Shown: one piece after another, positions 911 through 58,991 of the stretch
Numbering within the stretch: the first letter of the stretch is position 1
Layout: every line of letters starts with the position of its first letter
Assembly: GCA_965249455.1 (NCBI GenBank)
Contig: OZ252236.1
Coordinates: 102,161 to 166,160 of the forward strand
Source: Jiulongibacter sp.
GTDB taxonomy: Bacteria > Bacteroidota > Bacteroidia > Cytophagales > Spirosomataceae
Length of the DNA: 64,000 bases
Reading direction: 5' to 3'
The notes under the pieces: model-generated
What the model saw: only the letters and a program-made list of their open reading frames with translations
Told to the model about the DNA's origin: nothing
Databases searched by the model: none
Program-made: the position numbers and the translations under genes

Positions 911-955
911 ATCAGTACTTTATTACCTAAACTATACCTTACAAACCCTATTAAT

Positions 956-1741: not shown

Positions 1742-1746
1742 CAGCT

Positions 1747-2637: not shown

Positions 2638-2648
2638 AACAAACTAAA

Positions 2649-3458: not shown

Positions 3459-3461
3459 ATT

Positions 3462-4655: not shown

Positions 4656-4659
4656 TATT

Positions 4660-8219: not shown

Positions 8220-8279
8220 TACTTTCAGGCCTTAAAAAACTCTAGCTTTGCACTCTCGATAGTATTGCATATTAAATAG

Positions 8280-9419
8280 ATGTCAAAAAGCAGGTGGGCT
8301 GTTTCCTCTTATTTTTTTATCAATGGCCTTGTTTATGGAAACTGGACCTCCCGATTGCCTGAAATACAAGCATTTTTTGGTGTCAGCAACAAAATTTTAG
8401 GTACCATTCTCCTCTTTATTGCAGTGGGAGCCATTATTTCCATGCCATTTACAGGCTGGTTAAATCACAGGGTACCCGGCGATAAAATAACAAAGGTTAC
8501 CGGTTATGTTTTTTGCTTACTTATACCATTTCTGGTGCTAAGCAATAACACCATAGTTGTCATGTTGGTTTTCCTTCTATTCGGGGTGGTAAACGGAGCC
8601 ATGGATGTGGCCATGAATGGACAGGCTGTTTATGTAGAAAGAGCTTATAATAAACCAATCATGTCATCTTTCCATGCTTTGTTTAGTGTAGGTATGGCGG
8701 CAGGAGCCGGTGTCAGTGCTGTCTTAACCAAAACAGGCTTATCGCTCAATGTTCATTTCACTTTTTTAGCCTTATTCTCCTTTATGTTACTACTCTTTGC
8801 TTCGAGATATTTAGTGAAAGAAGAGATGGAGGCAGGCAGCACTGAAGAAACACATTTTAAATGGCCGACTAAAGCCATTTTACCGTTAGGGTTAATTGCT
8901 TTTTGTAGTATGACGGGCGAAGGCTCCATGGCTGACTGGTCAGCCATTTACATCACAAAAGAGCTAAAAGAATCTGAGTTTTTTGGTGCTTTGGCCATAG
9001 GCATTTTTAGTAGCACCATGACCATTGGAAGAATATTCGGAGACTACATAACCGCCAAAATAGGGAAGCAAACTCTTTTAATAGCAGACAGCCTTTTGGC
9101 CATTTTCGGGTTACTTCTTGTACTATTCTCCGGCCAAATCATCTTAACACTCATAGGTCTGGGCATAGTAGGATTAGGACTTTCTACTGTGGTACCCATC
9201 ATTTATGGCATGGCAGGCAATGCACCTGGAGTAAAACCTAGTGTGGGCATAGCAATGGCCACCACGGTAGGTTATGCCGGTTTTTTTGTGGGACCTCCGG
9301 TCATAGGGTTTCTTTCAGACAGCTTTAACCTTAAGGTAGGTCTGTCATTCAGTCTCTTTTTGTTTGTCTTAATGCTGGCCATCATTTTTAAGGCAAATCC
9401 AGGTAATAAACATGGATAA
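8280..9419 (+). CDS. MFS transporter
   Basis: It is a polytopic hydrophobic protein of 379 aa with 12 predicted TM segments and is the terminal gene of the operon. Confidence 0.75.
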   Translation: MSKSRWAVSSYFFINGLVYGNWTSRLPEIQAFFGVSNKILGTILLFIAVGAIISMPFTGWLNHRVPGDKITKVTGYVFCLLIPFLVLSNNTIVVMLVFLLFGVVNGAMDVAMNGQAVYVERAYNKPIMSSFHALFSVGMAAGAGVSAVLTKTGLSLNVHFTFLALFSFMLLLFASRYLVKEEMEAGSTEETHFKWPTKAILPLGLIAFCSMTGEGSMADWSAIYITKELKESEFFGALAIGIFSSTMTIGRIFGDYITAKIGKQTLLIADSLLAIFGLLLVLFSGQIILTLIGLGIVGLGLSTVVPIIYGMAGNAPGVKPSVGIAMATTVGYAGFFVGPPVIGFLSDSFNLKVGLSFSLFLFVLMLAIIFKANPGNKHG

Positions 9420-9575
9420 TCCAAATTCAATAAAGAACTGTAGGCATCCAAAACTATTTCAAGTGCTGACCGATTATGAAGAATTCTTTCAAATCGCCGA
9501 AATGAAGCTCAAAAATGATTTCTTTACCTATGTAAATGCATGTCTATCCTGCTTTGCCAAAATTGCAGAAAAAAC

Positions 9576-9905
9576 ATGTACACAATCATACTACTACTTC
9601 AGGCCCAACCTAACTGGCTAAAGCTCTCCAGAACTGAAAGAAATACTATAAGTGGGGAAAGCTTTCTAAGCCTTTTAGAAAAATTTAAGGAACACATGAG
9701 TTTTGAATATCATGATTCAGAAGCTTTTCATGCCACCTTTTCTGATTTTCTTCTGATAAAAGCTGCGGACTTACAGAAGTATTATTTCTTCATAGAGGCT
9801 TTGCGGGATTCCGCCCTGCTATCAGAACCTTATTTTGAATTAAAAGAAGTAGTTATTGGAATACCTGACGGATATAAAATATACGAAAACCATGCAGACT
9901 ACTAA
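9576..9905 (+). CDS. darcynin family protein (DUF of about 100 aa)
   Basis: MYTIILLLQAQPNWLKLSRTERN...FEYHDSEAFHATFSDFLLIKAADLQKYYFFIEALRDS...EPYFEL matches my recollection of the darcynin family signature. I chose the internal ATG at 9576. Confidence 0.55.
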   Translation: MYTIILLLQAQPNWLKLSRTERNTISGESFLSLLEKFKEHMSFEYHDSEAFHATFSDFLLIKAADLQKYYFFIEALRDSALLSEPYFELKEVVIGIPDGYKIYENHADY

Positions 9906-10620
9906 TCAAAAAGTCCTTATCACCGGTGCTACAGCCGGAATTGGCCTTGCTCTGACAAAACGTTTTTTATCTGAAGGCAATACAGTTATTGGCATAGGCA
10001 GAAACCCTGAAATACTAAAGGAGCTGAAAGGATCAATTCTCCCATTCCAAGCTGATTTATCCAAAATCTCTGATCGCTTTCGCTTACTTGACTATCTCAA
10101 CAACGAGCATGCAGACCTCTCTGTTCTTATTAACAATGCCGGAATACAATACAATTATAGTTTCCTGGAAGAAGGCTCAAAAATTGACAAAATAAATTAT
10201 GAACTTGAATTAAATTTGACTGCACCCCTGCATTTATGTGAAGCCATTGTTCCTTTGTTTTTACAAAGTGAAAGTGAGAAGGCCATCATCAATGTCACCT
10301 CTGGGCTCGCCGATGTGCCCAAATCCTCCGCCCCGGTTTACTGTGGTTCAAAAGCAGGTTTAAAGCAATTTACAAAAGCTCTTAAATGGCAATTAACAGA
10401 CTCCAATATCCGGGTGTTTGACCTCAGCCCTTCTTTGGTGGACACCGGTATGACTGCCGGCAGAGGAAAAGGTAAAATAACACCTGATAAGTTGGTTGAC
10501 GAATTCTGGAATAAGTACAAAAAAAACCGATATCATATCGATATCGGTAAAGTCAAGCTTTTAAAAGTGCTAAACAGGTTGAGTCCGTCTTTGGCAGAAT
10601 CTATTATGAAAAAGAATTAA
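9892..10620 (+). CDS. SDR family oxidoreductase
   Basis: It has the VLITGATAGIGLAL motif and a YCGSK catalytic YxxxK. Confidence 0.75.
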   Translation: MQTTNQKVLITGATAGIGLALTKRFLSEGNTVIGIGRNPEILKELKGSILPFQADLSKISDRFRLLDYLNNEHADLSVLINNAGIQYNYSFLEEGSKIDKINYELELNLTAPLHLCEAIVPLFLQSESEKAIINVTSGLADVPKSSAPVYCGSKAGLKQFTKALKWQLTDSNIRVFDLSPSLVDTGMTAGRGKGKITPDKLVDEFWNKYKKNRYHIDIGKVKLLKVLNRLSPSLAESIMKKN

Positions 10621-10621
10621 A

Positions 10622-13249
10622 CTACTTAAACATTTTGTTGTTCTCATCTCCACCTGCTATCAAATAGGCTAGTAGATCTTTCAGCTCTTCTTCGTTGAGA
10701 GAATTAACTAAACCCGGCAGCATGACCGAAACATCTGAATACTTTTTAGATACTACTGTATTCTTCTTGATTTCCATCAGGTAATCTGGTGCATATGGGT
10801 TTTGAGATACAACATAACTGTCCTCTTTCTCACTGATAATTTTCGCAATAATAGACTCCCCTGATTTCAACTGAAATTCAGTAGCTGCATACTGATCTGA
10901 AACCGTATTACTGGGTTCCAGAATGGCCTCCAATATGTCCGTTTTGCTAAATCTAGTACCTATTCTTGTTAAATCAGGCCCCACGTTTCCTCCTTGTCCA
11001 TTCATGCTATGGCATCTGTTACAGGTAGTGGCCACAAACATGTTTTTGCCCTTATTAAAGTCTCTGTTAACCAATGGGGCTTCCAAAGCTTTGCTTGCCT
11101 CATCCAGTTGCCAGTTTCTACCGGGCCCTTCAGGATATTCATCCATTTTCAGATCATTACCTGAGTCTGATAACATATCGCCTCCGGATACTTGATCGTA
11201 ATGTTCTCTTTTATTTTCAGGTACATTCTCCAAAGCCATTTTTCTGGCTTTATCAATAAAACCTACGTAACTGTTTCCACCACGATACTCAAAAGCCTTT
11301 TTGTACCATTTAAAGTATTTGTCTCGCAGAGCGGGTGTCCAGCCAGCTTTTGCCTCACTTAAAGCAACCGCATAATAGGTAGCATTTACCGGAGGTACTT
11401 TCTCTAACATTTTTGCTATGTCAAGTCCGTACTGCGGATTTCTCAATATCAGGTCTGCCGATGAAGTTGCCGTTTGACCTCCGGCCTGAACATCCTTTTG
11501 ACTACTTTCTATCAGCTTAATGGTCTTGGCCACTACAGTAGGGTCATCAAGAAAAACCAACAGCTTTACCAACTCCTTATCCAGAAGGTCTTTTCCAGTA
11601 GGGAACATCGGGCTTAGCTTTTTAGTCAATGTTTTCTTTTCTTCCTCCGTAAGACCAGAAATCCTACTGAAAAGAACTTCATACGTTCTTAAATAATCCA
11701 ATACGAACTGATCACCCAGGCCTTCCGTTTGAACCGTATTTAAGGCAGCAAGAACCGTATGAAGAGTTGTATTATCCTTAGTTGACCTGATTAATCCCAG
11801 TAAGGCCTGAGTCTTCTTTACAGGATTTTTTTCACTTAAGGCTTTTGCTTTCCACATTTCTAAAGGCTGATGCTCTAAGGCAATCCTTGAAGCGTAACGC
11901 ACATGTCTGTCCTGATAATTCAGGTAAGACCAAACTGCCTCAACAGCCCCTTCTTTTGGCATATGATAACCCTCTATTTCTCTTCTAAGTTTATTATCAG
12001 CTGTTAGTTCTGTGGTTTCTACCTCTGAAACACCAGGCCCTTCATAATACACTCTGTACAGGTCTGAAGACAGCCTTCTGCCACCTGTTAGGAAGTACAA
12101 GGCCCCGTCTGGGCCAATGGCTCCATCTGTAAGTGGAAGCGGTACACCCGATAGAAACTCCTCTCTTTTAGCCGAATAACTACTACCCTCAGGAAACAGG
12201 TGTATAGCATGCATAATGCCAAATGACCAGTCGAAAGCCAAAAGCGATTGTTTGTATTTAGCCGGAAATTTAGCCTCTTTAAGGTAAAGTAAATTGGTGG
12301 GCGAACCTTGACCAATATTTATTACCGCCGGAAGATTATCTGTAAAATCAGGTGACCATTTACCATCGCCCGTACGCCAGCCAAATTCACTTCCGCTGGT
12401 GGCATGGCAAATTCGTGTTGGTCTGTACCAAGGCAAACCAAAATCCCATTCCATGTCAGCATCATAAACAAAAAGGTCTCCTATGTCATTAAAAGCCAGA
12501 TCAAAAGGATTTCTGTATCCTGCACTTATGAGTTCCCATTCATTTGTTGCCGGGTCTACTTTGGCTACCCAGCCACCCGGCTGCATGCGGTCATTGGCAT
12601 GGCCTCTCGGATCCTTTATTTCAGGGAAAAGATTATCATAAGCCCAGGTAGGTGGCAGACGGTAAGCGTTTTGCTCCGGCAAATCTGTGTAGTTGCCGGC
12701 AATTACATAGAGAGACTTTCCATCAGGCGATAGTTTAATACTGTGCGGGCCATGTTCACCGTTTCCCTTCAATTGTTTCAGCAATTTTAACTGATCATAT
12801 TTATCATCGCCATCCGTATCTTTTAATTGGTAAAAGCCACTATGCTGGGGTAAACTTTCTGTTGATCGGTTATTAACCATCACAAACAGACTATTGAATG
12901 CATACAAAAGCCCGTGTCCGGTACCTATGGTTCCTTGAGTGCCAGGCAATTCAATTTTCTCAATTTCTGGTGTAAGATCAGAGGAACCAATGGCCGGAAT
13001 GGTAAGCCTGTAAAGGCCACCGTACTGGTCTGAGGCTATCATTCTGCCTTTATCATCAAAACACATAGAAACCCATGAACCCAAATCATGCTCTGAAGGC
13101 GAATAGATGTGTTCCGCCTTAAAGCCAGGCTGTAGTTTCAGTTTATCTGTTTTAGGGTTTTCAGCATTTTTTATTTTAAAGGCATAAAATGTGAGCCCAG
13201 CTAAACACGCCAAGGCAAATAAACTTACCTGTCTTCTTTTCAATTTCAT
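10622..13249 (-). CDS. c-type cytochrome dehydrogenase, PVC-type: beta-propeller 'membrane-bound dehydrogenase' domain, HEAT repeats and C-terminal heme-binding CxxCH domain
   Basis: It has a signal peptide, a PQQ-sugar-dehydrogenase-like propeller region, HEAT-like repeats, and a C-terminal NMFVATTCNRCHSMNGQGGNVGPDL (CxxCH). Confidence 0.7.
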   Translation of the reverse strand: MKLKRRQVSLFALACLAGLTFYAFKIKNAENPKTDKLKLQPGFKAEHIYSPSEHDLGSWVSMCFDDKGRMIASDQYGGLYRLTIPAIGSSDLTPEIEKIELPGTQGTIGTGHGLLYAFNSLFVMVNNRSTESLPQHSGFYQLKDTDGDDKYDQLKLLKQLKGNGEHGPHSIKLSPDGKSLYVIAGNYTDLPEQNAYRLPPTWAYDNLFPEIKDPRGHANDRMQPGGWVAKVDPATNEWELISAGYRNPFDLAFNDIGDLFVYDADMEWDFGLPWYRPTRICHATSGSEFGWRTGDGKWSPDFTDNLPAVINIGQGSPTNLLYLKEAKFPAKYKQSLLAFDWSFGIMHAIHLFPEGSSYSAKREEFLSGVPLPLTDGAIGPDGALYFLTGGRRLSSDLYRVYYEGPGVSEVETTELTADNKLRREIEGYHMPKEGAVEAVWSYLNYQDRHVRYASRIALEHQPLEMWKAKALSEKNPVKKTQALLGLIRSTKDNTTLHTVLAALNTVQTEGLGDQFVLDYLRTYEVLFSRISGLTEEEKKTLTKKLSPMFPTGKDLLDKELVKLLVFLDDPTVVAKTIKLIESSQKDVQAGGQTATSSADLILRNPQYGLDIAKMLEKVPPVNATYYAVALSEAKAGWTPALRDKYFKWYKKAFEYRGGNSYVGFIDKARKMALENVPENKREHYDQVSGGDMLSDSGNDLKMDEYPEGPGRNWQLDEASKALEAPLVNRDFNKGKNMFVATTCNRCHSMNGQGGNVGPDLTRIGTRFSKTDILEAILEPSNTVSDQYAATEFQLKSGESIIAKIISEKEDSYVVSQNPYAPDYLMEIKKNTVVSKKYSDVSVMLPGLVNSLNEEELKDLLAYLIAGGDENNKMFK

Positions 13250-26891: not shown

Positions 26892-28655
26892 TTAATTCTG
26901 CAACCTTTCCATTTCCACATAAAAGGGGAAAATGCGTTTCCCGGCCGAAACATAAAACGGAATAAGGTCACAAGTACCCTGAGAGAGTTTAATACTATTC
27001 ATCTCGACCCTCTCCAGATTTTCTCCCTCGAATACCTTCTTAAACACTTTTGAACCCACTTCTAAATACATTGTTCCGGAGCTTACAGGCTTGATAAATT
27101 TGAAGACTGCCTTATATTTCCCCTCATTTACGGAGACTCTCCATTTGCCATAGACCTCCTCCTGAGCCCAAATTCCCCTTTCTCCTCCGGCATCATTTCT
27201 GTTTAATATTATTGGATTTTCCTGCTCAGCTCCCACAACTATTGGTGGTTGATTCACTAAATGTACAGAGCTTATTAAACTATGATATTGTTTGTCGAAC
27301 TCTTTTTTAAGAGTTCTGGCTACCTCTTTCTGCTCTACATTAAGATTGACTTCCTCTCCGGGATCTGAGTTAATATTATATAATTCGAAGTCTGTCATTT
27401 CTGCATCAAAATCTGTCATACCAACTAACCGGTAATCACCCATTTGTAAAGCAACGTTATTATATAACTCCGGGTACCGTCTGGCCCATGAAAAGAACAA
27501 GGGTCTGTCTGCCCAGCTTACTTCTTTTCCTTCCAATAAGGGTAGTAAGCTGTGCCCATCTAATTCACGATCCTTAGGCAATTCTAAATTACATATTGCT
27601 GCCAGCGTGGGAAGTATGTCCATATGGGTGGCTGTTACATTAATGCTTTTTGCTTCGGGGTATTTCTGAGGATACCTTAGCATCATTGGCACACGAACGC
27701 CTCCTCGGTACACCATCGTCTTACGCCCCCGCATACCTCCGGTAAATCTTTTTTGTTGCGGCCCATTATCAGTCATAAAAATAAGGATCGTATTCTCAGC
27801 AATTCCCAGTTCCTCAAGTTGAGTCAAAAGCTTTCCGATATTATCATCAATATTGCTGACCATTCCATAGACCTTTCGGGCATCTTCCTTATCCCTTTCT
27901 GTCATTTCAGGCAGATTGTCTACATCTTTAAAACCTTCAGACGGATCAATATCTTTATACATATCGTAATACTTCTGAGGCAATTGTAAAGGCGTATGTG
28001 GAGCATTGAAAGCCAGATAACAAAAGAAAGGATTCGCCTTGTTTTGCTTAATAAAATTCATGGCTTCCGTTACGAATATATCTGAGCAATATCCTTCAAA
28101 GGCTTTCTGTTTTCCATTTTGCCATAATATAGGGTTGAAATAGCTACTGTCTCCTTTAAAATATGTAGTTATGTCTCCTACCTGACCCATCCCGCCGGAG
28201 AGATGTATTAAGGATTCATCAAAACCCTGATCCATAGGTCGGGAAGGATAATTATCGCCCAAATGCCATTTGCCAAAAATCCCTGTGGTGTAATTAGCCT
28301 TTTTCAGAAATTCGGCAATCGTTACTTCATCTGTATGCATGATAGCTCCGCCGTTATAGGTATCTCTAATTCCGGTCCTAAGCGACTGCCTCCCAGTCAT
28401 TAAACTGGCACGTGTAGGGGCACAAACAGGTGATACGTAAAAGCTATTGAATAGAATACTGTTTGCCGCCAATTCATCAAGTACAGGTGTTTTCACATGC
28501 CGATTTCCTGTAAATCCAAAATCACCATAACCCTGGTCATCTGTCATGATGAGGATGATATTGGGCTTGTCTGGAGTTTCAGATTTCTCTGGTTTTGAAC
28601 AGGCTAAAAAAACAGAACATACAGACAGACTAAGCAGCAGAGAGAATTTTTCCAT
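26892..28655 (-). CDS. sulfatase (formylglycine-dependent arylsulfatase family), lipoprotein
   Basis: It has the PVCAPTRASLMTGR CxPxR formylglycine motif, a signal peptide with a lipobox (FLACS), and 587 aa. Confidence 0.85.
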   Translation of the reverse strand: MEKFSLLLSLSVCSVFLACSKPEKSETPDKPNIILIMTDDQGYGDFGFTGNRHVKTPVLDELAANSILFNSFYVSPVCAPTRASLMTGRQSLRTGIRDTYNGGAIMHTDEVTIAEFLKKANYTTGIFGKWHLGDNYPSRPMDQGFDESLIHLSGGMGQVGDITTYFKGDSSYFNPILWQNGKQKAFEGYCSDIFVTEAMNFIKQNKANPFFCYLAFNAPHTPLQLPQKYYDMYKDIDPSEGFKDVDNLPEMTERDKEDARKVYGMVSNIDDNIGKLLTQLEELGIAENTILIFMTDNGPQQKRFTGGMRGRKTMVYRGGVRVPMMLRYPQKYPEAKSINVTATHMDILPTLAAICNLELPKDRELDGHSLLPLLEGKEVSWADRPLFFSWARRYPELYNNVALQMGDYRLVGMTDFDAEMTDFELYNINSDPGEEVNLNVEQKEVARTLKKEFDKQYHSLISSVHLVNQPPIVVGAEQENPIILNRNDAGGERGIWAQEEVYGKWRVSVNEGKYKAVFKFIKPVSSGTMYLEVGSKVFKKVFEGENLERVEMNSIKLSQGTCDLIPFYVSAGKRIFPFYVEMERLQN

Positions 28656-28808: not shown

Positions 28809-30317
28809 TTAATCTTCTCTTGGTTCTTTTCGTCTTGCATCTGCCATTCGAACTATCCTCGGGTGAAAAGAAGCAATTGGTTTGACTAATTCAGTTTGTG
28901 CATCAATAACTTCATGAATATTCTTGTACACCATTGGAGCTTCATCCAGATCGCTTCCAATCAATTCAATTCCCTGATCTCTCAGGATTTTTCTGACCTC
29001 AGATTCATCAACATTTTTAAATGCAGCTGTTCTACTCATTACCCGGCCCGCACCGTGTGAAGCCGAATTGATGGAAGCCTCATTTCCTAGTCCTTTCACA
29101 AGAAAACCCGGCGTTGCCATTGATCCTGGAATTATCCCCAATTCATCTTTGGAGGCAGGTGTAGCACCTTTTCTGTGAACCAAAACATCTTTACCCATAT
29201 ACTTTTCCCGCCAAGCAAAATTATGGTGATTCTCCACCATAAGAATCGGTTTCAAATTCAGATCACTGGCCATTTTGTTATGGATTTCGTGGTGATTCGC
29301 TGAAGCATATTCGCCTGCTAAATTCATAGCTATCCAATATTCCTGCCCTTCCTCTTTATTAAGGTCTAGCCAAGCAAGATGTGAAGCCTCACCGGGCAAC
29401 TTAGTTACCTGCCGTGCAATTCTTGTGTAATAACTAGCAATGGTTCCACCAAAGCCACGTGACCCAGAATGCGATAGCAAAGTCAAATACTGACCCATAG
29501 GTAAACCAATGGCTTCATCAAACTCTTCTATCTCTAAAACTCCCCATTCTACGAAATGGTTACCAGTGCCTGAGGTCCCCAATTGTTTGTAGGCCTTATC
29601 CTTCAAATCATTAATTACTTTTGTGGCATTCCATTCAGCCTTGTCCATAATTGAGGCATCATACTTATGCCTTATCTCTCCGCCTATTCCGAACTGGGCA
29701 TTCTTGCCCAGAAGCGTTTTAAGCATATCAGACTCCTTTTGTAAAACACTTGAAGGCAAATCAAAAACAGACATGCACATTCTGCAAGCAATATCAACGC
29801 CTACGGCATAAGGGATGACCTTATCAGGCTCTGTGGCCAAAACACCTCCAATGGGCAAGCCGTATCCCTGATGAGCATCAGGCATAAGAGCACCACCTAT
29901 AGCTATAGGCAATTGCATGGCAACATTCATCTGGTTAAAAGCTCCTTCTTCAATATACTCACCTCCATAGACAGGGAAATCCAGTATTTCAGGTTTTAAT
30001 TCAAATTTACTGGAATCCAACTCCCTTTGAGTTTTAACCGGAAATTCAGAAATGGTTTGCTCCAGAAGAGCCTGCCCTGCTTTAGTAAGTTTTATGGATA
30101 TTCCATTGTCAGACTCTTTGACTAGCAAGCGAGCCAGCTTAGTCAGCTTATTTTTCCTTTTAGCAGCAGCTTTGGGGTGGTCAAAAAGCTTTACAAGTGC
30201 TTTGAGAATGTCTTCTTCTCCCCACCCTGCTTTGGTTAATAGCCCTTCTGTTACCCGGGTAACTCTAGGTATAATTTCGGCGGGGATTTCCGCAATCATT
30301 TTTATGCTGTTTTCCAT
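28809..30317 (-). CDS. rtcB: RtcB family RNA 3'-phosphate/5'-OH ligase with N-terminal extension of about 80 aa
   Basis: It carries the RtcB signature motifs MPDAHQGYGLPIGG, HSGSRGFG, ENHHNF and SASHGAGR, and a C-terminal ...KPIASFHPRIVRM. Confidence 0.85.
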   Translation of the reverse strand: MENSIKMIAEIPAEIIPRVTRVTEGLLTKAGWGEEDILKALVKLFDHPKAAAKRKNKLTKLARLLVKESDNGISIKLTKAGQALLEQTISEFPVKTQRELDSSKFELKPEILDFPVYGGEYIEEGAFNQMNVAMQLPIAIGGALMPDAHQGYGLPIGGVLATEPDKVIPYAVGVDIACRMCMSVFDLPSSVLQKESDMLKTLLGKNAQFGIGGEIRHKYDASIMDKAEWNATKVINDLKDKAYKQLGTSGTGNHFVEWGVLEIEEFDEAIGLPMGQYLTLLSHSGSRGFGGTIASYYTRIARQVTKLPGEASHLAWLDLNKEEGQEYWIAMNLAGEYASANHHEIHNKMASDLNLKPILMVENHHNFAWREKYMGKDVLVHRKGATPASKDELGIIPGSMATPGFLVKGLGNEASINSASHGAGRVMSRTAAFKNVDESEVRKILRDQGIELIGSDLDEAPMVYKNIHEVIDAQTELVKPIASFHPRIVRMADARRKEPRED

Positions 30318-30351: not shown

Positions 30352-30374
30352 TCTACGCAATCTTTTTGCGTAGA
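30352..30374. promoter_or_regulatory. perfect palindrome TCTACGCAA-tcttt-TTGCGTAGA (candidate operator) in the rtcB/regulator divergent promoter
   Basis: It has 9-bp perfect inverted arms with a 5-bp spacer and lies between the rtcB start (30317, minus) and the WYL regulator start (30420, plus). A half-site, TTTACGCAAA, overlaps the regulator ATG (30411-30420). Confidence 0.65.
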
Positions 30375-30419: not shown

Positions 30420-31457
30420 ATGCCCGTTAACAGAAACGCCCTGATCCGCTACAAAGTAATTGACAGCTGCCTGCAAAGGAGACAACGAAAATGGACACTT
30501 GATGATTTAATTGATGCCGTTTCTGATGCCTTGTATGAGTTTGATGGCAACGATAAGGGTATAAGTAAGCGAACGATCCAGTCAGATATTCAAATGATGA
30601 GGAGTGATAAACTAGGTTATTATGCTCCCATTGTGGTTGAAGACAAGAAATATTATACCTATTCAGAACCAGGGTACAGCATCACGAATATTCCACTATC
30701 CGAAACTGATTTAGGAAAGATGAACGAAGCCGTAGAAATGCTGAAACAGTTCAAAGGCTTTACGCATTTTAATCAGCTGAATGAGGTGGTTCAAAAACTG
30801 GAAGATCATGTTTACTCGTCTCGTGTCAAATCGTTTCCTGTTATAGATTTTGAGAAAAATGATAATCTGAAAGGTCTAAATCATCTTGATATTCTGTATC
30901 AATCGGTTATTCATAAAAAGCCCGTTTCATTGACTTATCAATCATTCAAAGCCCGAAAGGCGAGTACTTTTGCCTTTAACGTCTGGTGGCTAAAGGAATT
31001 TAAGAACAGGTGGTTTGCCGTTGGCGTCAAAGATCAGAAGAAGTTTCTTCTAACACTGGCTTTGGATCGAATTGAGGATGTTAATATTTCAGAAGAAAGT
31101 TATGTAGAAAATGACAAGTTCAATCCTGAATTATACTACAAACATGTAATTGGGGTAACTGTGAGCAATCATCTAAGACCTCTTAAAGTTGGTTTGTTTG
31201 TTTCCAATCTGCATGCCCCGTATGTCATTACAAAGCCTTTACATAGCTCTCAAGAATTACTGGAAACACGGGAAGATGGTATGGTAATTCAATTGAAAGT
31301 ACAGCATAATTTTGAGCTGGAAAAAGAAATTCTTGGCTTTGGGGAAGGAGTGCAAGTTTTGTGGCCGCCAAGGCTTCAAAAGAAAATTAAAGAAAGATTG
31401 CAGAACGCCTATAAAAGCTATGACTCATCAGATATTCCCGACGAGTCACTAGCTTAA
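30420..31457 (+). CDS. WYL domain-containing transcriptional regulator (wHTH plus WYL plus C-terminal WCX-like domain; PafBC/DriD-like)
   Basis: It has an N-terminal HTH (GISKRTIQSDIQMMRSD). The WYL core is PVSLTYQSFKARKASTFAFNVWWLKEFKNRWFAVGVKDQKKFLLTLALDRIEDV. It is divergent from rtcB. Confidence 0.7.
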   Translation: MPVNRNALIRYKVIDSCLQRRQRKWTLDDLIDAVSDALYEFDGNDKGISKRTIQSDIQMMRSDKLGYYAPIVVEDKKYYTYSEPGYSITNIPLSETDLGKMNEAVEMLKQFKGFTHFNQLNEVVQKLEDHVYSSRVKSFPVIDFEKNDNLKGLNHLDILYQSVIHKKPVSLTYQSFKARKASTFAFNVWWLKEFKNRWFAVGVKDQKKFLLTLALDRIEDVNISEESYVENDKFNPELYYKHVIGVTVSNHLRPLKVGLFVSNLHAPYVITKPLHSSQELLETREDGMVIQLKVQHNFELEKEILGFGEGVQVLWPPRLQKKIKERLQNAYKSYDSSDIPDESLA

Positions 31458-32548
31458 TTTTTCATGAAGATTTGCTTCAATTGATCCAGAATTTGTCCGT
31501 TTCCTGAAACAGAAATTGTGTTGATTTTCTCTGCGATCTTCTCCACGTATTCCATCTCCTTCAGTTTCCAGAGCATCTGGTTTTCTTCCATCAGTTTAGC
31601 CGTATTCAGCAAGCTTCTGGTAGAAGCCGTTTCCTGTCTTTGCGTAATCATATTGGCCTGAGCTGTTTTTTCGGCAATCAAGACTTTGTTCATAATCGTT
31701 TTGATTTCGCCCGGCAAAATGATATCCCGAATACCGCAGGTTTTTAATTCCACCCCTAAAGTAAGGCCCTCTTTGGCCACATCCTGAAGTATGTAATCAG
31801 AGACTCTTTCTTTTTTGGCCACCAGTTCATCCAATGTCATTTCACCAATGTACTCTCTCAATGAAATCTGAAGCATCACATACAACTGCTTTTCAAACTC
31901 CTTGTTATTAAAGAGAGCTTTCTTGAGGTCAACAACCTGATAATGAGCAAAAAAGCTGATCCGAACATTAGCCTTGTCCTTGGTCAGAATTTCCTGGCCG
32001 GAAACCTCCAACTGCTGCTGACGAATATCCAGTTTGGCGACATCTATTTTTGTGGCGTTTTTCCACCAATAGTAGGTACCGCTCTCAAGCTCTTTCTCAA
32101 ATTTTCCGTCAATCAAAAGCAAGCCTCGCTCGTAAGATTCCAAGGTATACCTTCTTATCCATGGCAAAAGAGCGGTGTCCAGCAATTGCCTTTCAATATC
32201 CTCTGTAATCTCAATTTTGGAGGTGTCCACTTTAACAAATGTTTGCTCTTTGATGCCTTTCCATACACCGTATTCGCCTTTTAACAATACTTTTGAGAAT
32301 CGTTTGTTTTCGAATTGGAGGGCAATTTGATTGTCTCCAACCTCAATCAAGTGTAGCTCGCTGGCTACTTCTGGTTTCAGATGCAAAGTATCTTCAAGTA
32401 AGGGAGGATTATATACCTCATCTCTGTTAAAAACAAATACCTGTTCACCTTGAATGAACCAATAAATGCCTTCCTGAAGCACCTTTTGGAATTTCTTCCT
32501 TTTGAAAACCAAACCAATCTGGTTTTCCAATACCTGTACTCTTTTCAT
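31454..32548 (-). CDS. SPFH/band-7 (slipin-like) domain protein with an extra N-terminal half
   Basis: The C-terminal half has the stomatin/HflC-like motifs (VRISFFAHYQVVD..., GIRDIILPGEIKTIMNKVLIAEKTAQAN). The first 150 aa or so are unassigned. Confidence 0.65.
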   Translation of the reverse strand: MKRVQVLENQIGLVFKRKKFQKVLQEGIYWFIQGEQVFVFNRDEVYNPPLLEDTLHLKPEVASELHLIEVGDNQIALQFENKRFSKVLLKGEYGVWKGIKEQTFVKVDTSKIEITEDIERQLLDTALLPWIRRYTLESYERGLLLIDGKFEKELESGTYYWWKNATKIDVAKLDIRQQQLEVSGQEILTKDKANVRISFFAHYQVVDLKKALFNNKEFEKQLYVMLQISLREYIGEMTLDELVAKKERVSDYILQDVAKEGLTLGVELKTCGIRDIILPGEIKTIMNKVLIAEKTAQANMITQRQETASTRSLLNTAKLMEENQMLWKLKEMEYVEKIAEKINTISVSGNGQILDQLKQIFMKN

Positions 32549-32559
32549 TTGGGTACGTG

Positions 32560-32884
32560 TTTAAGTTAAAAAATAATAAAGCCGCTTAACCCGGGTTATC
32601 CGCAGAAAACTGCTGACGGGGTCCCCCTTAAGAACAGCTGGGGGTGGAACGTTCCAGTAGATCCTTGTGAACTCCATTTAGTATCAGATGTACTTTTTGG
32701 TGAAAACAAGTATCGACCAGAAGGTTTCACTCTTCGTCATTCGGTATCCGGGCGGCCCGGCCGAGCTCCTGTGATCACTAAGACCTGGGCAAGCCGGGTT
32801 AAACGGTGAGTTTTGCCATTTTTGGGCTGACAGCCCTTTACAGATTAACGGTCTGTTGCATTAACCAATATGCTTCAGGTAACT
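32560..32884 (-). other. GC-rich, hairpin-dense non-coding segment between the tRNA-like array and the SPFH gene (structured leader or unknown ncRNA)
   Basis: There is no ORF of 60 aa or more. Local GC is well above the flanks, with many strong hairpins (GGGGTCCCCC, GGAACGTTCC, CCGGGCGGCCCGGCCGAGCTCC) and two AACCCGG(C/G)TT motifs. Confidence 0.35.
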
Positions 32885-33160
32885 AAAACCTAGCGGGATT
32901 CGAACCCACATATTGCTGCTGCTCTAACCTAGCTGAGCTACTCCGTCAAAGACAGAGGAAGGAATCGAACCTTCGACCTGCAAGGTGATATAGAGATTAA
33001 AGTTCTGACGGCATATTCATCCCAATTAGTAGAATACCACGAGGCAATACGGAAACCTTCGTCAGGTTCAAAACAGTAATCAAAAATCGAGGTGAATATG
33101 AGGATCGAACTCATGTCTTTACCCTAGTGGGCATTGTCCTTTCCACTGGACCAAAACACC
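32885..33160 (-). ncRNA. tandem array of about three tRNA-like elements lacking canonical anticodon arms (Y-RNA/YrlA-like tRNA mimics or degenerate tRNAs)
   Basis: On the minus strand, elements 1 and 3 have canonical T-arms and D-arms with a U8-A9 junction, and element 2 has a canonical T-arm. The T-arms are ATGAG-TTCGATC-CTCAT, GAAGG-TTCGATT-CCTTC and GTGGG-TTCGAAT-CCCGC. The D-arms are GTCC-AGTGGAAA-GGAC and GCTC-AGCTAGGTTA-GAGC. Only 11-21 nt sit where a 17-nt anticodon arm plus variable loop should be. In element 1 this region is a 5-bp stem with a 4-nt loop. The acceptor-stem pairing is imperfect in all three. Confidence 0.5.
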
Positions 33161-33194: not shown

Positions 33195-33215
33195 TAGTAC
33201 GCAGCCTTTTTGCGT
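33195..33215. promoter_or_regulatory. second copy of the TACGCA-N7-TGCGTA palindrome, upstream of the tRNA-like array on the minus strand
   Basis: GTACGCAGCCTTTTTGCGTAG matches CTACGCAATCTTTTTGCGTAG at 30353-30373 in 17 of 21 positions, with identical spacing. Confidence 0.6.
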
Positions 33216-33295
33216 AGGTGAAAAATTTCTTACTTTTTATTATTGTGGCAATTGGGTAGATTTTACTAATAATAGTACATAACTATTCTATGAAA

Positions 33296-52682: not shown

Positions 52683-54104
52683 TTAATCATAGCTAAAATC
52701 GTCATCATTTAATTGATGCTCATCGTCAATTTTTACGGGTAATTTAGCACCGGAATCCTTCATCCACTTTAGAAGGTCTTTTAGCAGCTTATCTCTTATT
52801 TCTTTTTCAGTTATAGACAAATCCTTTCTTTCACCAATATCCTCCGAAAGATTGTAGAGCTCCACCCCTTCTTTCTTCCTCTTCCCTTTATTTAAAACCC
52901 ATTCCTCATGATGAAGAAGGATTTTCCAATCACCTTGTCTCATCAGCGTTACGGGTCTGCTTCTGAAATCCTGATCGCGGCCTCTGATGACCGGTCTGTC
53001 AAGATAGCCTGGAAAATGCCAGAATATGCCTTCTCTTTCTACAGAAGCTTGCTCTCCAAAAAGAACAGGCTTTATGCTGACTCCATCTAAATACGCATCT
53101 GGACTGGCTCCGGCTAAATCCACGAAAGTAGGATACAAATCCACATTTATGATGGGCATAGTGTTTATCCCGGGAGTTATTTTGCCCGGCATACAGGCAA
53201 TAAACGGTTCTCTGATGCCACCCTCATAATAGCTGCCCTTATTGCCTCTCAGGGGTTCTTGTGGAGATTCATTGGTAGCTCCATTATCCGAAGTAAAAAT
53301 GATGAGCGTATTTTCTTCAAGCCCCAGTTTTCGTAAATGATTTCTTACCAAAGCCACACTGGCATCCAAGTCAAAAGTGCAAGCAGCATAAAGTGCTTGT
53401 TTATCTGATAAACCTTTGTCCTTAAAATGTTCAAAACTGGAAGGACGAGCCTCTAAACTACTGTGAATAGCGTGGTGAGAAAGAAAAGCAAAGAATGGCT
53501 TCTGTTTGTTTTCTGTGATAAAATCGCATGCCGCATTCGTTAGAGAAAATATCCCTTTGGGATCTTCCGGCTCATCTCTTTTTTTGTTCGGGTTCCCTTG
53601 TCTTGAGTCAAAATAGGTGTCAAATCCTTGTGCCAGAGGCTTTGTTTCAGAAGTTTTACCCAGATGCCATTTCCCGAACAGGCCGGTACTGTAACCTTGA
53701 CTTTTCAATGCTTCTGCCACGGTGACAAACTTTCCCTCCAGGTGATTAGTGTTGGGAACAGGAACTACCTTCATTTTCGACTTGTCGCCTCGAGTGGTTC
53801 CCCAAACGGCATACACCCCGTGAGCCGGTGAGTACTTTCCACTTACCAGACAAGCCCTGCTCGGGGCACAGTTTCCTGCACTGGCATAGGCATTAGGAAA
53901 CACCAGACCTTCTTTTGCCAAAGCATCTATATTGGGTGTCTCAAATTCAGGGTGGCCATTATAAGCCACATCCATATAACCCAAATCATCGGCAAAAATT
54001 AAGACAATGTTTGGCTTCTGTGCTCGTAGATCTAAGGTGCTTAAAGCCACAAAAAATAAAGTCAGTATAACCTGATAGATGTTATCATTCGATTTCATAG
54101 TCAA
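52683..54104 (-). CDS. sulfatase
   Basis: It has the AGNCAPSRACLVSGK CxPxR motif and a signal peptide. Confidence 0.85.
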   Translation of the reverse strand: MTMKSNDNIYQVILTLFFVALSTLDLRAQKPNIVLIFADDLGYMDVAYNGHPEFETPNIDALAKEGLVFPNAYASAGNCAPSRACLVSGKYSPAHGVYAVWGTTRGDKSKMKVVPVPNTNHLEGKFVTVAEALKSQGYSTGLFGKWHLGKTSETKPLAQGFDTYFDSRQGNPNKKRDEPEDPKGIFSLTNAACDFITENKQKPFFAFLSHHAIHSSLEARPSSFEHFKDKGLSDKQALYAACTFDLDASVALVRNHLRKLGLEENTLIIFTSDNGATNESPQEPLRGNKGSYYEGGIREPFIACMPGKITPGINTMPIINVDLYPTFVDLAGASPDAYLDGVSIKPVLFGEQASVEREGIFWHFPGYLDRPVIRGRDQDFRSRPVTLMRQGDWKILLHHEEWVLNKGKRKKEGVELYNLSEDIGERKDLSITEKEIRDKLLKDLLKWMKDSGAKLPVKIDDEHQLNDDDFSYD

Positions 54105-54131
54105 ATAGGATTGGGTTTTAATACACTTGTC

Positions 54132-56006
54132 TTAAGGAATAGCCGCTGGCTGAAGGCCTTCCAGATAAAAAAGCATATTAGCTGAGAGCGAAAACTGTTC
54201 AAATGCCTTATCACTTTTTCTTATTTCATCTATTTCTTTGACAAAGTGTACTAAGTCAGCCCTGTTTTTTTGATAAAGTAGCATTTGTACAGCCATCCAA
54301 CTTAAAATGGGGTCATTACTTTCCAATACTTTTTTCAATGCCTTATGATCGCTGGTTTGTTCACTGACAATGGAGGCCAATACTACCTGAGCAGCATCCG
54401 GGTCTTGTTCCGCTAAATTTTTAATTGTGCCTAAATAGGGTTGAATGTTTTGAGTAGGCTGACATTTTAATCCGATAGCGGCCCAAAACCTGAGTACTTG
54501 ATTCTCAGATAGCAAGGCCTTTTTTTGTTTATTAATAGAGCCTTGTGAATCTTGACCTACTAAAAAAGCCATATCCACAATCTCTTTGACAGGGTATAAT
54601 TTGTTATCTAAGCGATAGTGATACATTGGGCCGGTTTTTGATATCCTGATCATTTCTGTTTCCGGCAAAAACATGACATCCCGTTCATTGATCAAATGCT
54701 CCTTTAATTTCTGACGGTACGTACTCAAGACCGCGTTATACTCTTTTGACAAAGCCAGATTATTGGTTTGCCATCGGTCATTTTTTATATCATAAAGGAA
54801 CTCAACAGGTCTTGGCTCCAGCATTTGAGACTCTACCGAGCTAAGCTTGCCCCCGGCATAATCCTTTCTAATGGTGGAAGTAATATCGCCCCTATCCATA
54901 TAAGAGAGGAAACGAAGCTCCTGAATGTAAGGTCTGAACACCCGGGTGTAAGCAAATTGATCGTCGATGACCGTACGCGTCATATCAAAGCTTTCATCTG
55001 AGCGATCTGAAGACAAAAAGAGGTTCTGATGTTCTGCTTTAAACAGGCTCTGCCCTTGAAAGTGTTCGGGTACGGGCACCTTAGCTATATCTAAAACCGT
55101 AGGTGGCAAATCACAAAAGTCCAGAAGTTGGGTATTCACAGTCCCATTTGTGACCGAAAACTCTTTCTGATACTTTTCAGGAACGTACATGATAAATGGA
55201 ACCTGATGTCCAAGTGCCACACCATTTGTTTTTGCACGGGGCATTCCTTCTCCATGATCTGCAAAACAAAACACAATTGTATTTTCCAGAAGTCCTTCAG
55301 ATTGTAGCCTGTCAAAAAGATTTCGCATTTCCATATCAGCCAAAGAAATGGAATTGTAGATTCTGGCGGTATGTTTTCTCATCGCCGGGCTGTCCTTATA
55401 AAATTCAGGTAACAGCACTTCATCTGCTGAGGTCTTCAACTCTTTTGGCAATTTGCTCAGAACCATTTGCTCGTATTCTTCATATGAGTTCGTCATGGTT
55501 CTGGACTGATGACTACTCATGAAATTAAATACAGCAAAAAACGGCTGTCCCTCTTCTCTGTTCCACCATCCAGCTTTGTTAGAACTCTCGTGCCATGCTT
55601 CTGCAATAAAGGCTTTAGTCTCTGCTACGTTATAGTCAGTTTTTGCATTATTCGTGCAGTAGTATCCAGCTTGTTTCAGATAATATGGAAAGCCCTTCAC
55701 AAACTCCGGTATGGGATAATTACTTCTGTGATTACCTGTACCTAAAGTGTAGGTTTTCATGCCCGTTATAAGAGCCGTTCTGCTTGGGGAGCATACGCTT
55801 CCGGTGGAAAACACCTGTGTAAATCTGGACCCGACCTTTGCCAGAGAGTCCATGAATGGAGTTTTGGCCGCCGTATTTCCATAACTTCCCAAAAATTGCG
55901 GAGAAGTATCTTCATACGTAAGCCAAAGAATATTGGGACGATCCTGAGCCTTTGCCCAGGAAGCACCCAATAAAATCCAGATTACGGCCAAACCTAGTTT
56001 CTTCAT
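54132..56006 (-). CDS. sulfatase with C-terminal extension
   Basis: It has the GSVCSPSRTALITG CxPxR motif. At 624 aa it has about 150 extra C-terminal residues. Confidence 0.8.
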   Translation of the reverse strand: MKKLGLAVIWILLGASWAKAQDRPNILWLTYEDTSPQFLGSYGNTAAKTPFMDSLAKVGSRFTQVFSTGSVCSPSRTALITGMKTYTLGTGNHRSNYPIPEFVKGFPYYLKQAGYYCTNNAKTDYNVAETKAFIAEAWHESSNKAGWWNREEGQPFFAVFNFMSSHQSRTMTNSYEEYEQMVLSKLPKELKTSADEVLLPEFYKDSPAMRKHTARIYNSISLADMEMRNLFDRLQSEGLLENTIVFCFADHGEGMPRAKTNGVALGHQVPFIMYVPEKYQKEFSVTNGTVNTQLLDFCDLPPTVLDIAKVPVPEHFQGQSLFKAEHQNLFLSSDRSDESFDMTRTVIDDQFAYTRVFRPYIQELRFLSYMDRGDITSTIRKDYAGGKLSSVESQMLEPRPVEFLYDIKNDRWQTNNLALSKEYNAVLSTYRQKLKEHLINERDVMFLPETEMIRISKTGPMYHYRLDNKLYPVKEIVDMAFLVGQDSQGSINKQKKALLSENQVLRFWAAIGLKCQPTQNIQPYLGTIKNLAEQDPDAAQVVLASIVSEQTSDHKALKKVLESNDPILSWMAVQMLLYQKNRADLVHFVKEIDEIRKSDKAFEQFSLSANMLFYLEGLQPAAIP

Positions 56007-57413
56007 TTACTTTTTGATTTTGATCAACTCATAATTCGGATCATCAGTACGAGCAGTACTTAGCAATCCTTCTAACTCTTTGAGCTTATCAGGGTATACT
56101 AAAGCCAAATCATTTTCTTCGCTTATATCTTCTTTCAAATTATACAATTCAATTGGCTGTTGGTAATATTTTACAATTTTCCAGTCGCCTTGTCTTAAGG
56201 CCTGGCGTGGACCTTTAGCCTCATTAAATTCCCAATACAAATACTTATGGCTTTGCTGCTTTCTCCCCTTTAAGGCATTAACATACGATAGGCCATTTAC
56301 TTCGGGATCTGTAGGTGTTAAGCCGGCAATTTCACAGGCTGTAGGAAGAAAATCCCAAAATGCCGAGATGTGATCTGTGGTACTGCCTGGTTTAATCTGA
56401 GAAGGCCATCTGGCCGCAAATGGCACATGAATTCCGCCCTCGTAAGTATCTCTTTTTCTTCCTTTGAATTTCCAGTTGCTATCAAAGAACCCGTTATCAT
56501 ACTCATGCCCATTGTCGCTGGTAAAAATGATCAGGGTATTGTCATCAATTCCCAGCCTTTTCAGCTTTTGCATAAGTAATCCAATATCTTTATCCATACG
56601 GGCTATCATACCTGCATAAGTGGTATTGCCTTCGGGATCATTGTAATAATGACCTTTTTTCATGGGTCTTTCTTCCCAACCCAGATTCAAAAAAGGTTCT
56701 TTAGAATCTTCAGGTACAGTTAACTCATAGTGAGGAATAGTAAATGCCAGATAAAGAAAGAATGGATTCCCTTCTGCGGCTTGGTTATCTACAAATTGTA
56801 GTGCCTCAGAGGCAATTAAGTCATGCGAAAACTGACCAGTGGTTTCCTCCGGAATATTGTTCTCCAGTTTTACCTCCTCTGTGTTTCTCCAAAGACGAAG
56901 AGGATAATAATGATGGGCAGCCCCATGTCTTCGATACCCAAAGAAATGGTCAAATCCCTGCTTATTGGCTTGAGCAGAAGTGCCGGCTTCATCCATACCC
57001 CACTTTCCGAAAATGGCTGTACTGTAACCAGCTCTCTTTAACTCCTCAGCCACAGTAACGTCCTCATCCAGCAAAACCACATCTTTACCGGAAGTAGTCC
57101 AGTTTGGGTTTCCTCTCACTCTTGTGTGTCCGGTATCTTTACCTGTAAGTAAACAAGATCTGGAGGGCCCGCAAACAGGCGAGCCAGAGTAGTGATTGGT
57201 AAAAACTATGCCCTCACGGGCTATTTTATCTATGTTAGGCGTTTTGATTTTCTCTTGACCATTAAACCCTACATCGCCATAGCCCAGATCATCGGCCATG
57301 ATATAAATGATGTTTGGTTTTGTCTTTGCCGAGCCTTTGTTGACCTGTTTAAGACAAGCACTGGCCGTGACTAATAATCCTGTGGCGAGTGTAAGTAGAC
57401 TTTTATAAAACAT
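56007..57413 (-). CDS. sulfatase
   Basis: It has the GSPVCGPSRSCLLTG CxPxR motif. Its stop abuts the start of the next sulfatase (TAA then ATG). Confidence 0.85.
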   Translation of the reverse strand: MFYKSLLTLATGLLVTASACLKQVNKGSAKTKPNIIYIMADDLGYGDVGFNGQEKIKTPNIDKIAREGIVFTNHYSGSPVCGPSRSCLLTGKDTGHTRVRGNPNWTTSGKDVVLLDEDVTVAEELKRAGYSTAIFGKWGMDEAGTSAQANKQGFDHFFGYRRHGAAHHYYPLRLWRNTEEVKLENNIPEETTGQFSHDLIASEALQFVDNQAAEGNPFFLYLAFTIPHYELTVPEDSKEPFLNLGWEERPMKKGHYYNDPEGNTTYAGMIARMDKDIGLLMQKLKRLGIDDNTLIIFTSDNGHEYDNGFFDSNWKFKGRKRDTYEGGIHVPFAARWPSQIKPGSTTDHISAFWDFLPTACEIAGLTPTDPEVNGLSYVNALKGRKQQSHKYLYWEFNEAKGPRQALRQGDWKIVKYYQQPIELYNLKEDISEENDLALVYPDKLKELEGLLSTARTDDPNYELIKIKK

Positions 57414-57483
57414 AGTTTCAGTTTATGAAATGAATAACAAAGCACAGGCTCAAAGAGCCTGCACTTTCGTCCCTTAACCCAGT

Positions 57484-58980: not shown

Positions 58981-58991
58981 TTTTGATTGGA

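Follow-up and report, generated by a model that had tools for sequence, protein, structure and literature searches.

To date, the closest described counterparts of tRNA-like RNAs encoded beside bacterial RNA-repair genes are YrlA and b7a-tRNA. YrlA (RF02553) consists of a permuted T-arm, a closed acceptor-like stem and a D-arm, and is recognized by its position on the strand of a Ro60 (TROVE) gene, no more than about 4 kb away from it (Chen et al. 2014, PMC4201824); in M. smegmatis it is cleaved by RNase P and undergoes CCA addition (PMC4201824). YrlA also occurs occasionally beside Band-7 genes (Wang et al., bioRxiv 10.1101/312249), and the same preprint credits Burroughs and Aravind (2016) with predicting b7a-tRNA, a tRNA-like noncoding RNA (ncRNA) beside Band-7 and RtcB genes that 'strongly resembles' authentic tRNA, a prediction made without experimental validation. 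Burroughs and Aravind, writing in NAR in 2016, are said to have proposed b7a-tRNA as the cognate RNA of a Band-7 scaffold. The present analysis concerns an RNA of this kind in Jiulongibacter sp. (Bacteroidota, Cytophagales; a metagenome-assembled genome, GenBank assembly GCA_965249455.1, contig OZ252236.1, positions 102,161 to 166,160), the whole stretch of 64,000 nucleotides (nt) being referred to as the window and numbered from its first letter. In the window, a gene-free stretch of 747 nt on the minus strand (33295-32549), located between an open reading frame (ORF) of 136 amino acids (aa) and a Band-7 gene of the slipin family, contains short ORFs only. The RNA encoded there can be identified with high confidence as a slipin-associated tRNA mimic, and positions 33217-32568 (minus strand) probably form one transcription unit for a structured ncRNA of about 600 nt in a WYL-controlled slipin–RtcB RNA-repair locus.

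Permuted tRNA-like modules upstream of slipin

An initial annotation of the window had described three tandem tRNA-like elements, and the three T-arms on which it was based were all recovered on the minus strand, each with a 5-bp stem and a TTCGAWY loop (33114-33098, 32974-32958 and 32909-32893). They are the sole such motifs in the 64 kb: on a search of both strands, the pattern GKTCGAWYCY is matched at these three sites alone, within 215 nt, where 0.8 matches are expected over the whole window. ARAGORN reported no tRNA gene in the whole 64-kb window. The earlier statement that the elements are neither functional tRNAs nor ordinary pseudogenes is supported by the alignment with YrlA described below. 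At gathering thresholds, the single Rfam match is to tRNA at 33160-33090 (36.8 bits; gathering score 29), the two other alignments to Rfam tRNA (RF00005) in the window scoring 22.4 and 21.9 bits, below threshold, and matches to transfer-messenger RNA (tmRNA) comprising the T-arm only. The tRNA-like parts are the following, MFE denoting the minimum-free-energy fold and R1 a covariance model introduced below.

33090 to 33160, minus strand: element 1, an ordinary-order tRNA-like cloverleaf (Rfam tRNA, 36.8 bits; MFE fold a cloverleaf)
32916 to 32983, minus strand: module A, a permuted tRNA-like domain (Rfam YrlA, 37.2 bits, E = 7.5e-6; MFE fold the same)
32840 to 32909, minus strand: module B (within the R1 match at 32838-32987; covariation)

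Module A is enclosed by a 4-bp anticodon-like stem (32983-32980 with 32919-32916), which is followed by a 5-nt variable loop, the T-arm (32974-32958), a closed 7-bp acceptor hairpin (32957-32941), U8-A9 and a D-arm (32938-32921), and it has no anticodon arm; the U8-A9 and the D-arm, together at 32940-32921, are canonical. Module A takes its T-arm from element 2 of the initial annotation and its D-arm from element 3. The initial annotation had assigned D-arms preceded by U8-A9 to elements 1 and 3, and both D-arms stand, as does U8-A9 in element 3, whereas element 1 has U8-G9. In module B, the T-arm (32909-32893) is followed by an acceptor hairpin (32892-32876), a D-arm (32873-32858) and an anticodon-like arm (32856-32840) with a 5-bp stem and the 7-nt loop CCGUUAA. 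The end set for the feature in the initial annotation, 32885, cuts this module in half, its D-arm and anticodon arm, as well as a pseudoknot, lying beyond. The loop of module B measures 7 nt in 54 of the 64 sequences of the covariance-model alignment described below, and these 54 have U33 (51/54; C33 in the window), a pyrimidine at position 32 (53/54) and a purine at position 37 (51/54), with 24 different triplets at positions 34-36. Judged from these sequences, selection acts on the shape of the loop and not on which triplet it carries. Because the acceptor stems of both modules are closed hairpins, with loops as short as 3 nt, the two tandem L-shape mimics have no end that could be aminoacylated.

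Conservation and covariation across Bacteroidota

Eighty loci, one genome per species, were retrieved through alignment of slipin homologues (numbered L001 onwards). A search with nhmmer showed that more than 50 of the 80 loci have a conserved counterpart of the window's intergenic sequence directly before slipin. When the paired T-loops were used as anchors, the layout was recovered in 62 upstream regions (61 loci and the window), of which 61 were aligned with MAFFT (alignment A2), L045 being left out as its start is too near a contig end. In A2, 91.3% of the cells of the permuted structure (41 pairs in eight helices) were paired, as compared with 37-47% when the 3' partners were slid; double changes were found at 37 of the 41 pairs, and the covariation score was 0.618, which none of 500 shuffles reached, against 0.08-0.13. 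A covariance model built from the relatives (R1; 150 positions, 40 pairs) has a single match in the window, at 32838-32987 (121.9 bits). With scores of 89-142 bits, it also finds the RNA immediately before slipin in 63 of the 80 loci, which come from Cytophagales, Chitinophagaceae, Pedobacter, Flavobacterium and Bacteroidales. The alignment of 64 sequences to R1, which is fitted to the model and leans towards its structure, the MAFFT alignment serving as the independent test, showed 94.6% of cells paired, double changes at 36 of 40 pairs and a covariation score of 0.697 against 0.07-0.15.

In this second alignment, the closed acceptor hairpins were paired in 86-89% of cells, with double changes at all 14 pairs, the 4-bp stem that encloses module A in 99.6%, and other helices in up to approximately 100%. 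The Levitt pair 15:48 covaries in 61 of the 64 sequences, as G15:C48 in 51 and A15:U48 in 10. An ordinary-order acceptor for element 3, formed from the 3' strand of hairpin A and the 5' strand of hairpin B, was paired in 59% of cells against 30-47% in slid controls, and the leftover signal comes from lineages whose two hairpins share UUCC…GGAA ends. The three ordinary-order units with excised anticodon arms of the initial annotation must therefore be abandoned for elements 2 and 3, which are parts of permuted modules; likewise, the imperfect acceptor pairing ascribed to all three is a property of element 1 (5/7 pairs), the strands of elements 2 and 3 pairing locally in closed 7-bp hairpins. 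The conservation and compensatory changes that the initial annotation had proposed to look for in orthologous loci are both seen: the RNA is present in 63 of the 80 loci, and the elements recur beside rtcB loci throughout Bacteroidota. Since both position and structure are conserved with compensatory changes at 36-37 of 40-41 pairs, the comparison of sequences argues for purifying selection on the permuted fold across several Bacteroidota orders and not for decay. R1 also cross-matches adjacent real tRNAs at 20-63 bits, which suggests that the modules arose from tandem tRNA genes, perhaps through re-pairing of neighbouring acceptor strands.

Comparison with YrlA, b7a-tRNA and other tRNA mimics

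The modules share with YrlA the order of T-arm, closed acceptor-like stem-loop and D-arm, the retention of tRNA tertiary nucleotides, including the covarying Levitt pair, an anticodon-like stem to which both flanking strands contribute, and a location in RtcB repair loci. Sub-threshold matches to the YrlA model were obtained for module A in the window and in five of five relatives tested, and for module B in L006. In contrast to YrlA, the window RNA scores 37.2 bits (relatives, 32-47 bits) against a gathering score of 69, aligns (E-value mode, 32982-32917) with model positions 23-85 only and leaves positions 1-22 and 86-114 unmatched, lacking the Ro-binding bulged helix and the GNCGAAN0-1G end motif; it has tandem modules, the second with a full anticodon arm, within an RNA of about 600 nt, and lies beside slipin. 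The sequence GACGAAG at 33063-33057 fits the Ro-binding motif and was rejected, as it is not conserved in relatives. No TROVE/Ro60 domain was found in any window ORF of 150 aa or more, and TROVE is encoded in three of the 80 loci (L008 7330-8841, L025 1737-3545 and L002 3676-5193). In L008, the TROVE gene is followed by a separate full-length YrlA-like RNA (9266-9375; model positions 1-114; 49.5 bits, gathering score 69), and in L025 by a shorter covariance-model match resembling module A (3740-3808), while in both loci the dual-module RNA still precedes slipin. Because TROVE is rare, and because L008 and L025 have a separate RNA at the TROVE side while the dual-module RNA stays before slipin, the dual-module RNA is most probably not the partner of Ro60. 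The Y-RNA-type design proposed in the initial annotation is thereby upheld as a likeness of fold, in view of the YrlA alignment, and set aside as membership of the Ro60-bound family. The current Rfam model may miss YrlA RNAs of Bacteroidota.

The agreement with b7a-tRNA, as the preprint describes it, lies in the genomic setting: in the window a tRNA-like ncRNA adjoins a Band-7 gene, with RtcB and WYL genes adjacent, and the layout recurs in 63 of the 80 loci, in Burkholderia and in E. coli. It differs in that the ordinary tRNA order is found in element 1 only (and in the Burkholderia unit), whereas the Bacteroidota core comprises two permuted closed-acceptor modules and further domains. By genomic definition, as the preprint gives it, the window locus is a b7a-tRNA system. 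There is no b7a-tRNA entry in Rfam, the main text of Weinberg et al. 2017 gave no term match for such an RNA, and nothing further was found in the literature on SPFH/stomatin proteins with RtcB. The class was thus predicted in 2016, while the architecture seen here is, as far as checked, undescribed and absent from Rfam. The Pedo-repair motif, which is merely listed in its 2010 paper, was considered and gave no match in three Pedobacter loci even at E <= 0.5.

As in canonical tRNAs, element 1 and both modules keep the T-loop, the D-loop, U8 and the variable-loop geometry, module B has the U33/R37 signature, and relatives carry real tRNA arrays beside the locus. The departures from tRNA are the 4-nt loop of element 1, the closed acceptors of modules A and B, the unconserved triplet and the lack of CCA or discriminator context, none having been noted though no systematic search was made. 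A 7-bp acceptor joining the two ends is absent, element 1 forming 5/7 pairs and the modules closed hairpins, and a 7-nt anticodon loop with a conserved anticodon is found in none of element 1, module A and module B. The permuted tRNAs of Cyanidioschyzon merolae, the tRNA-like domain of tmRNA, viral tRNA-like structures and mascRNA are comparable in rearranged order or L-shape mimicry, but the RNA described here shows no sign of decoding-tRNA processing and no mRNA-like or aminoacylatable part.

Element 1

Element 1 starts about 10 nt past the predicted transcript start and consists of an acceptor with 5/7 pairs, U8-G9, a D-arm and a T-arm, without CCA. The initial annotation had noted a 5-bp stem with a 4-nt loop at the anticodon position; the MFE fold has exactly this, and the Rfam alignment agrees (loop of 4-5 nt). 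In Emticicia sp. BO119 (L002), the corresponding position holds an intact tRNA-Asp(GUC), with which element 1 aligns, and in L001, a metagenome-assembled Emticicia genome, the RNA in this slot keeps the acceptor, D- and T-arms and has lost the anticodon arm. One to six real tRNAs occupy the slot in L002, L005, L021, L022, L031, L035, L067, L070 and L072. Because intact or arm-less tRNAs share its slot in relatives, element 1 is derived from a tRNA-Asp close to the promoter, its anticodon loop having been shortened. It probably serves as a 5' processing handle for RNase P and RNase Z; that element 1, taken alone, is simply a decaying tRNA remnant is plausible but less likely.

Predicted promoter, putative operator and remaining domains of the RNA

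Outside the tRNA-like parts, the following features were delimited.

33197 to 33217, minus strand: operator palindrome CTACGCAAAAAGGCTGCGTAC, followed 12 nt later by TTTG (33184-33181), before the RNA
30353 to 30373, minus strand: second operator copy, 12 nt upstream of TTTG (30340-30337), before rtcB, in the rtcB/WYL divergent region
33013 to 33069, minus strand: 5' conserved motif AACCUGAYGA..GUUUCYGUAUGGC..CCAUAGU, with two hairpins (33062-33039 and 33037-33013)
32814 to 32836, minus strand: H-type pseudoknot, GGGC-UGUCA-GCCC (32836-32824), an AAAAA linker and UGGCA (32818-32814), which pairs with the loop
32568 to 32806, minus strand: 3' domain of about 215 nt with a 13-bp closing helix (32806-32794 with 32594-32582)

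The palindrome pattern CTRCGCAA-N6-TGCGYAG has exactly two copies in the window, where 0.12 are expected; both are 21 nt long, read CTACGCAA-N6-TGCGTAG and have identical spacing to TTTG. The palindrome with TTTG was found in 46 of the 81 upstream regions searched, the window included, and is conserved in the nhmmer alignments; Pedobacter loci likewise have two palindrome copies. It is likely to be the operator of the WYL regulator, overlapping a Bacteroidota-type promoter, with a small regulon. Since the same palindrome with the same TTTG spacing precedes both the RNA and rtcB, the two would have a common regulator. The predicted transcript start lies at about 33175-33170. In L004, L029 and L039, which have no dual-module RNA, the operator palindrome lies about 170 nt upstream of slipin and is followed by the shared sequence GGGGGUGCGCUAACGCUGGA; this may be a different, shorter leader.

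The 5' motif occurs in only about 20 loci. Its conservation was seen with nhmmer, and RNAalifold on 11 sequences gave 15 pairs, eight of them with compensatory changes. A hammerhead ribozyme was considered for its CUGAYGA..GUUUC core and rejected, since its core boxes are unsuitable in order and polarity and its fold is a pair of simple hairpins. In the pseudoknot, the pairing between the loop and the downstream strand has a mean length of 4.30 nt, as against a mean of 3.20 and a maximum of 3.52 among 200 permuted controls; the offset falls consistently in the range of 5-8 nt, and covariation is seen at many of the pairs (CACC/GGUG, CAUC/GAUG and GCAUCC/GGAUGC in relatives; UGUCA/UGGCA in the window). 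The closing helix of the 3' domain is followed by a U tract at 32580-32568 (UUUAUUAUUUUUU) that ends 20 nt before the slipin ATG. Helix and U-rich tail are present in the MFE folds of the window and of all 16 relatives folded, and in nearly every locus they are found 20-50 nt ahead of the slipin ATG; the motifs GGAUACCG and CUUCCGY..GAUG were found by eye to be common to all 16 relatives. Rfam has no match to this domain. The closing helix and the U tract look like a terminator or attenuator.

The slipin–RtcB locus and its distribution

The genes next to the RNA are listed below.

31454 to 32548, minus strand: slipin/SPFH (Band-7) protein, presumed soluble, 364 aa (Pfam Band_7, 1.3e-27), directly downstream of the RNA
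30420 to 31457, plus strand: WYL/WCX-domain transcription regulator (Pfam WYL and WCX; PADLOC WYL)
28809 to 30317, minus strand: RtcB RNA ligase (3'-phosphate/5'-OH; Pfam RtcB, 1.7e-83)

The slipin-family name was taken from the source annotation of homologues. The closest solved structures are stomatin, QmcA and HflK/C, which form rings or cages. On reading the sequence, no obvious hydrophobic segment was noticed in the window slipin, no membrane-segment prediction having been run. PADLOC lists neither slipin nor RtcB as defence genes. The WYL gene of the window separates slipin from rtcB and is read from the opposite strand, whereas most relatives have it divergent to the promoter of the RNA; the order in the window reflects a local rearrangement, by which the usual operon is split. 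The RtcB proteins of the window, Emticicia and Larkinella have an N-terminal extension of about 110 aa, which most relatives lack according to tblastn coverage. Elsewhere in the window, a further sulfatase gene adjoins rtcB (26892-28655), and a SusC/SusD pair with three sulfatases at 52683-62006 represents a polysaccharide-utilisation locus, unrelated and, like the further sulfatase, ordinary Bacteroidota content.

Among the 63 RNA-positive loci, RtcB is encoded in 48, a WYL regulator, divergent and beside the RNA, in 33, RlaP in 15 and TROVE in three. In L025 (Taibaiella, 7489-11636), the genes after slipin encode an RNase T-like exonuclease, two RlaP nucleotidyltransferases and a T4 Rnl1-type ligase, so that RtcB has been displaced by another ligase while the RNA and slipin were kept. 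The association also reaches into Proteobacteria. Some 230 nt before slipin–RtcB–RlaP, Burkholderia cenocepacia has a T-arm minihelix and a tRNA-like unit of ordinary order (7-bp acceptor, D-arm, 6-bp stem with a GAAA loop, T-arm), and an E. coli strain has a T-arm with a closed hairpin before slipin–RlaP. The class thus comes in ordinary-order and permuted versions, the Bacteroidota form being the permuted tandem.

Real tRNA arrays were observed just upstream of RNA–slipin–RtcB on the same strand, with 209 tRNAs in 40 of the 80 loci; 15 loci have at least five, many relatives carry arrays of 8-15 tRNA genes, and the array loci include L002, L008, L015, L023, L036, L050, L061, L064 and L074 (roughly at 400-5400). 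ARAGORN found no real tRNA array in the 64-kb window. The arrays are rich in tRNAs for Asn (18), Lys (17), Phe (17), Arg(ACG) (14), Asp (14), His (14), Tyr (12) and Gln (11) and poor in those for Gly (0), Ala (1) and Thr (1). The abundant species are largely known targets of anticodon nucleases. This suggests that the arrays are 'spare tRNA' islands linked to repair. Some array tRNAs have 2-nt or 4-nt 'anticodons' as called by ARAGORN, or the A34 anticodons Cys-ACA, His-AUG and Tyr-AUA (L002 2888-2977; L015 1481-1575 and 2355-2428; L003 4667-4755; L010 5532-5604; L011 3264-3337); these may be nuclease-evading variants or pseudogenes.

Proposed function and alternative explanations

It is proposed that processing by RNase P and an RNase Z-type enzyme would remove element 1 and set the 5' end of the RNA, and that the mature RNA would bind an oligomeric soluble slipin, by analogy with Y RNA on the Ro60 ring. 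The bound RNA would display tRNA-shaped surfaces, namely the elbow, the acceptor–T minihelix and the anticodon loop, with no free ends, and these surfaces could recruit or compete for tRNA-recognising proteins, either RtcB or the anticodon nucleases whose damage RtcB repairs. A scaffold or cofactor role is put forward tentatively, and a role as decoy or sensor for anticodon nucleases is rather doubtful. In its most far-reaching form, which is speculative and rather unlikely, the ornate Bacteroidota RNA of about 600 nt would be a subunit of a slipin cage, in a Ro60/Y-RNA-like or vault-like ribonucleoprotein (RNP), with its hypervariable anticodon loop as nuclease bait, thereby coupling attack on tRNA to WYL-controlled RtcB repair, its modules having been born from a tRNA array.

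Several points weigh against this interpretation. The loci were chosen via slipin, and the linkage between RNA and slipin is therefore seen one way; the RNA might also occur without slipin. In the window, the closed acceptor hairpin of module B has 5 bp compared with 7 bp in the consensus, and the single-sequence MFE fold of module B departs from the consensus fold. The controls for the 3' helix (duplex energy and longest helix) discriminate weakly, as the relatives share the helix, and its support is mostly visual. The U tract could mean a simple terminated small RNA or an attenuator and not a protein partner. The architecture was compared with that of b7a-tRNA via a second-hand description, and every functional step of the RNP model is inferred.

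The strongest alternative is that the RNA is a purely cis-acting leader or sensor, situated at the 5' end of the slipin(-rtcB) mRNA and ending in a conditional terminator, in which the tRNA mimic, above all the anticodon arm of module B, would act as bait; its cleavage by an invading anticodon nuclease, or its binding by a tRNA-binding factor, would alter the fold and allow read-through. The near-constant distance of the closing helix and U-rich tail from the slipin ATG would suit such an attenuator, as would the retention of U33 and R37 in module B without conservation of the triplet, the ligand-sensing WYL regulator of this repair operon, and the result of a simple scan, which found no separate slipin promoter. 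However, an alternative pairing that could serve as anti-terminator was not identified, a cut in module B would detach the leader from the mRNA and would not switch it, and the structure is far larger than known attenuators. A solely cis-regulatory function is for these reasons considered unlikely, and it is compatible with the RNP model and not exclusive of it.

Much less of the evidence can be reconciled with three independent ordinary-order tRNA-like RNAs that lack anticodon arms and act as Ro60-bound Y RNAs. Element 1 is of ordinary order, the Burkholderia unit has an ordinary 7-bp acceptor stem, Rfam tRNA gives weak end-to-end alignments from the D-arm of module A to the T-arm of module B in relatives (30-35 bits), and the cross-pairing of hairpin strands at 59% exceeds that of the slid controls. 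This value nevertheless falls well short of the 86-89% of the closed hairpins and the 99.6% of the stem flanking module A, while TROVE is missing from the 64 kb, the Ro-binding helix of YrlA is unmatched and Ro60-encoding genomes carry a separate YrlA-like RNA, which makes this explanation very unlikely. It is more improbable still that the RNA is the decaying remnant of a tRNA array, made up of pseudogenes with no function of their own. The arrays of 8-15 tRNA genes just upstream in many relatives, the resemblance of element 1 to a damaged tRNA-Asp whose arm was lost altogether in L001, and the cross-matches of R1 to adjacent real tRNAs would all fit an origin of this kind, but the modules are conserved across several orders with compensatory changes at nearly every pair. 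Finally, genuine circularly permuted tRNA genes, whose halves would be joined, for example by RtcB, into decoding tRNAs, are hardly credible: the order T–acceptor–D–anticodon, an RNA ligase encoded in the locus, and the RNase P cleavage and CCA addition of M. smegmatis YrlA (PMC4201824) fit, whereas the 24 triplets among 54 sequences, a module A devoid of an anticodon arm and acceptor loops of down to 3 nt do not, and no discriminator/CCA context or bulge-helix-bulge was noted, no systematic search having been made.

Implications

The covariation-supported architecture and a working covariance model make the question of what tRNA-like RNAs do in repair operons testable. The set of partners is clear, comprising slipin, RtcB, the WYL regulator and a common operator, and the RNA is found in the culturable genera Pedobacter, Emticicia, Chryseolinea and Flavobacterium. 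The locus further suggests a route from tandem tRNA genes to permuted tRNA mimics, and it connects repair operons with nearby arrays of spare tRNAs, which are of the kinds targeted by anticodon nucleases.

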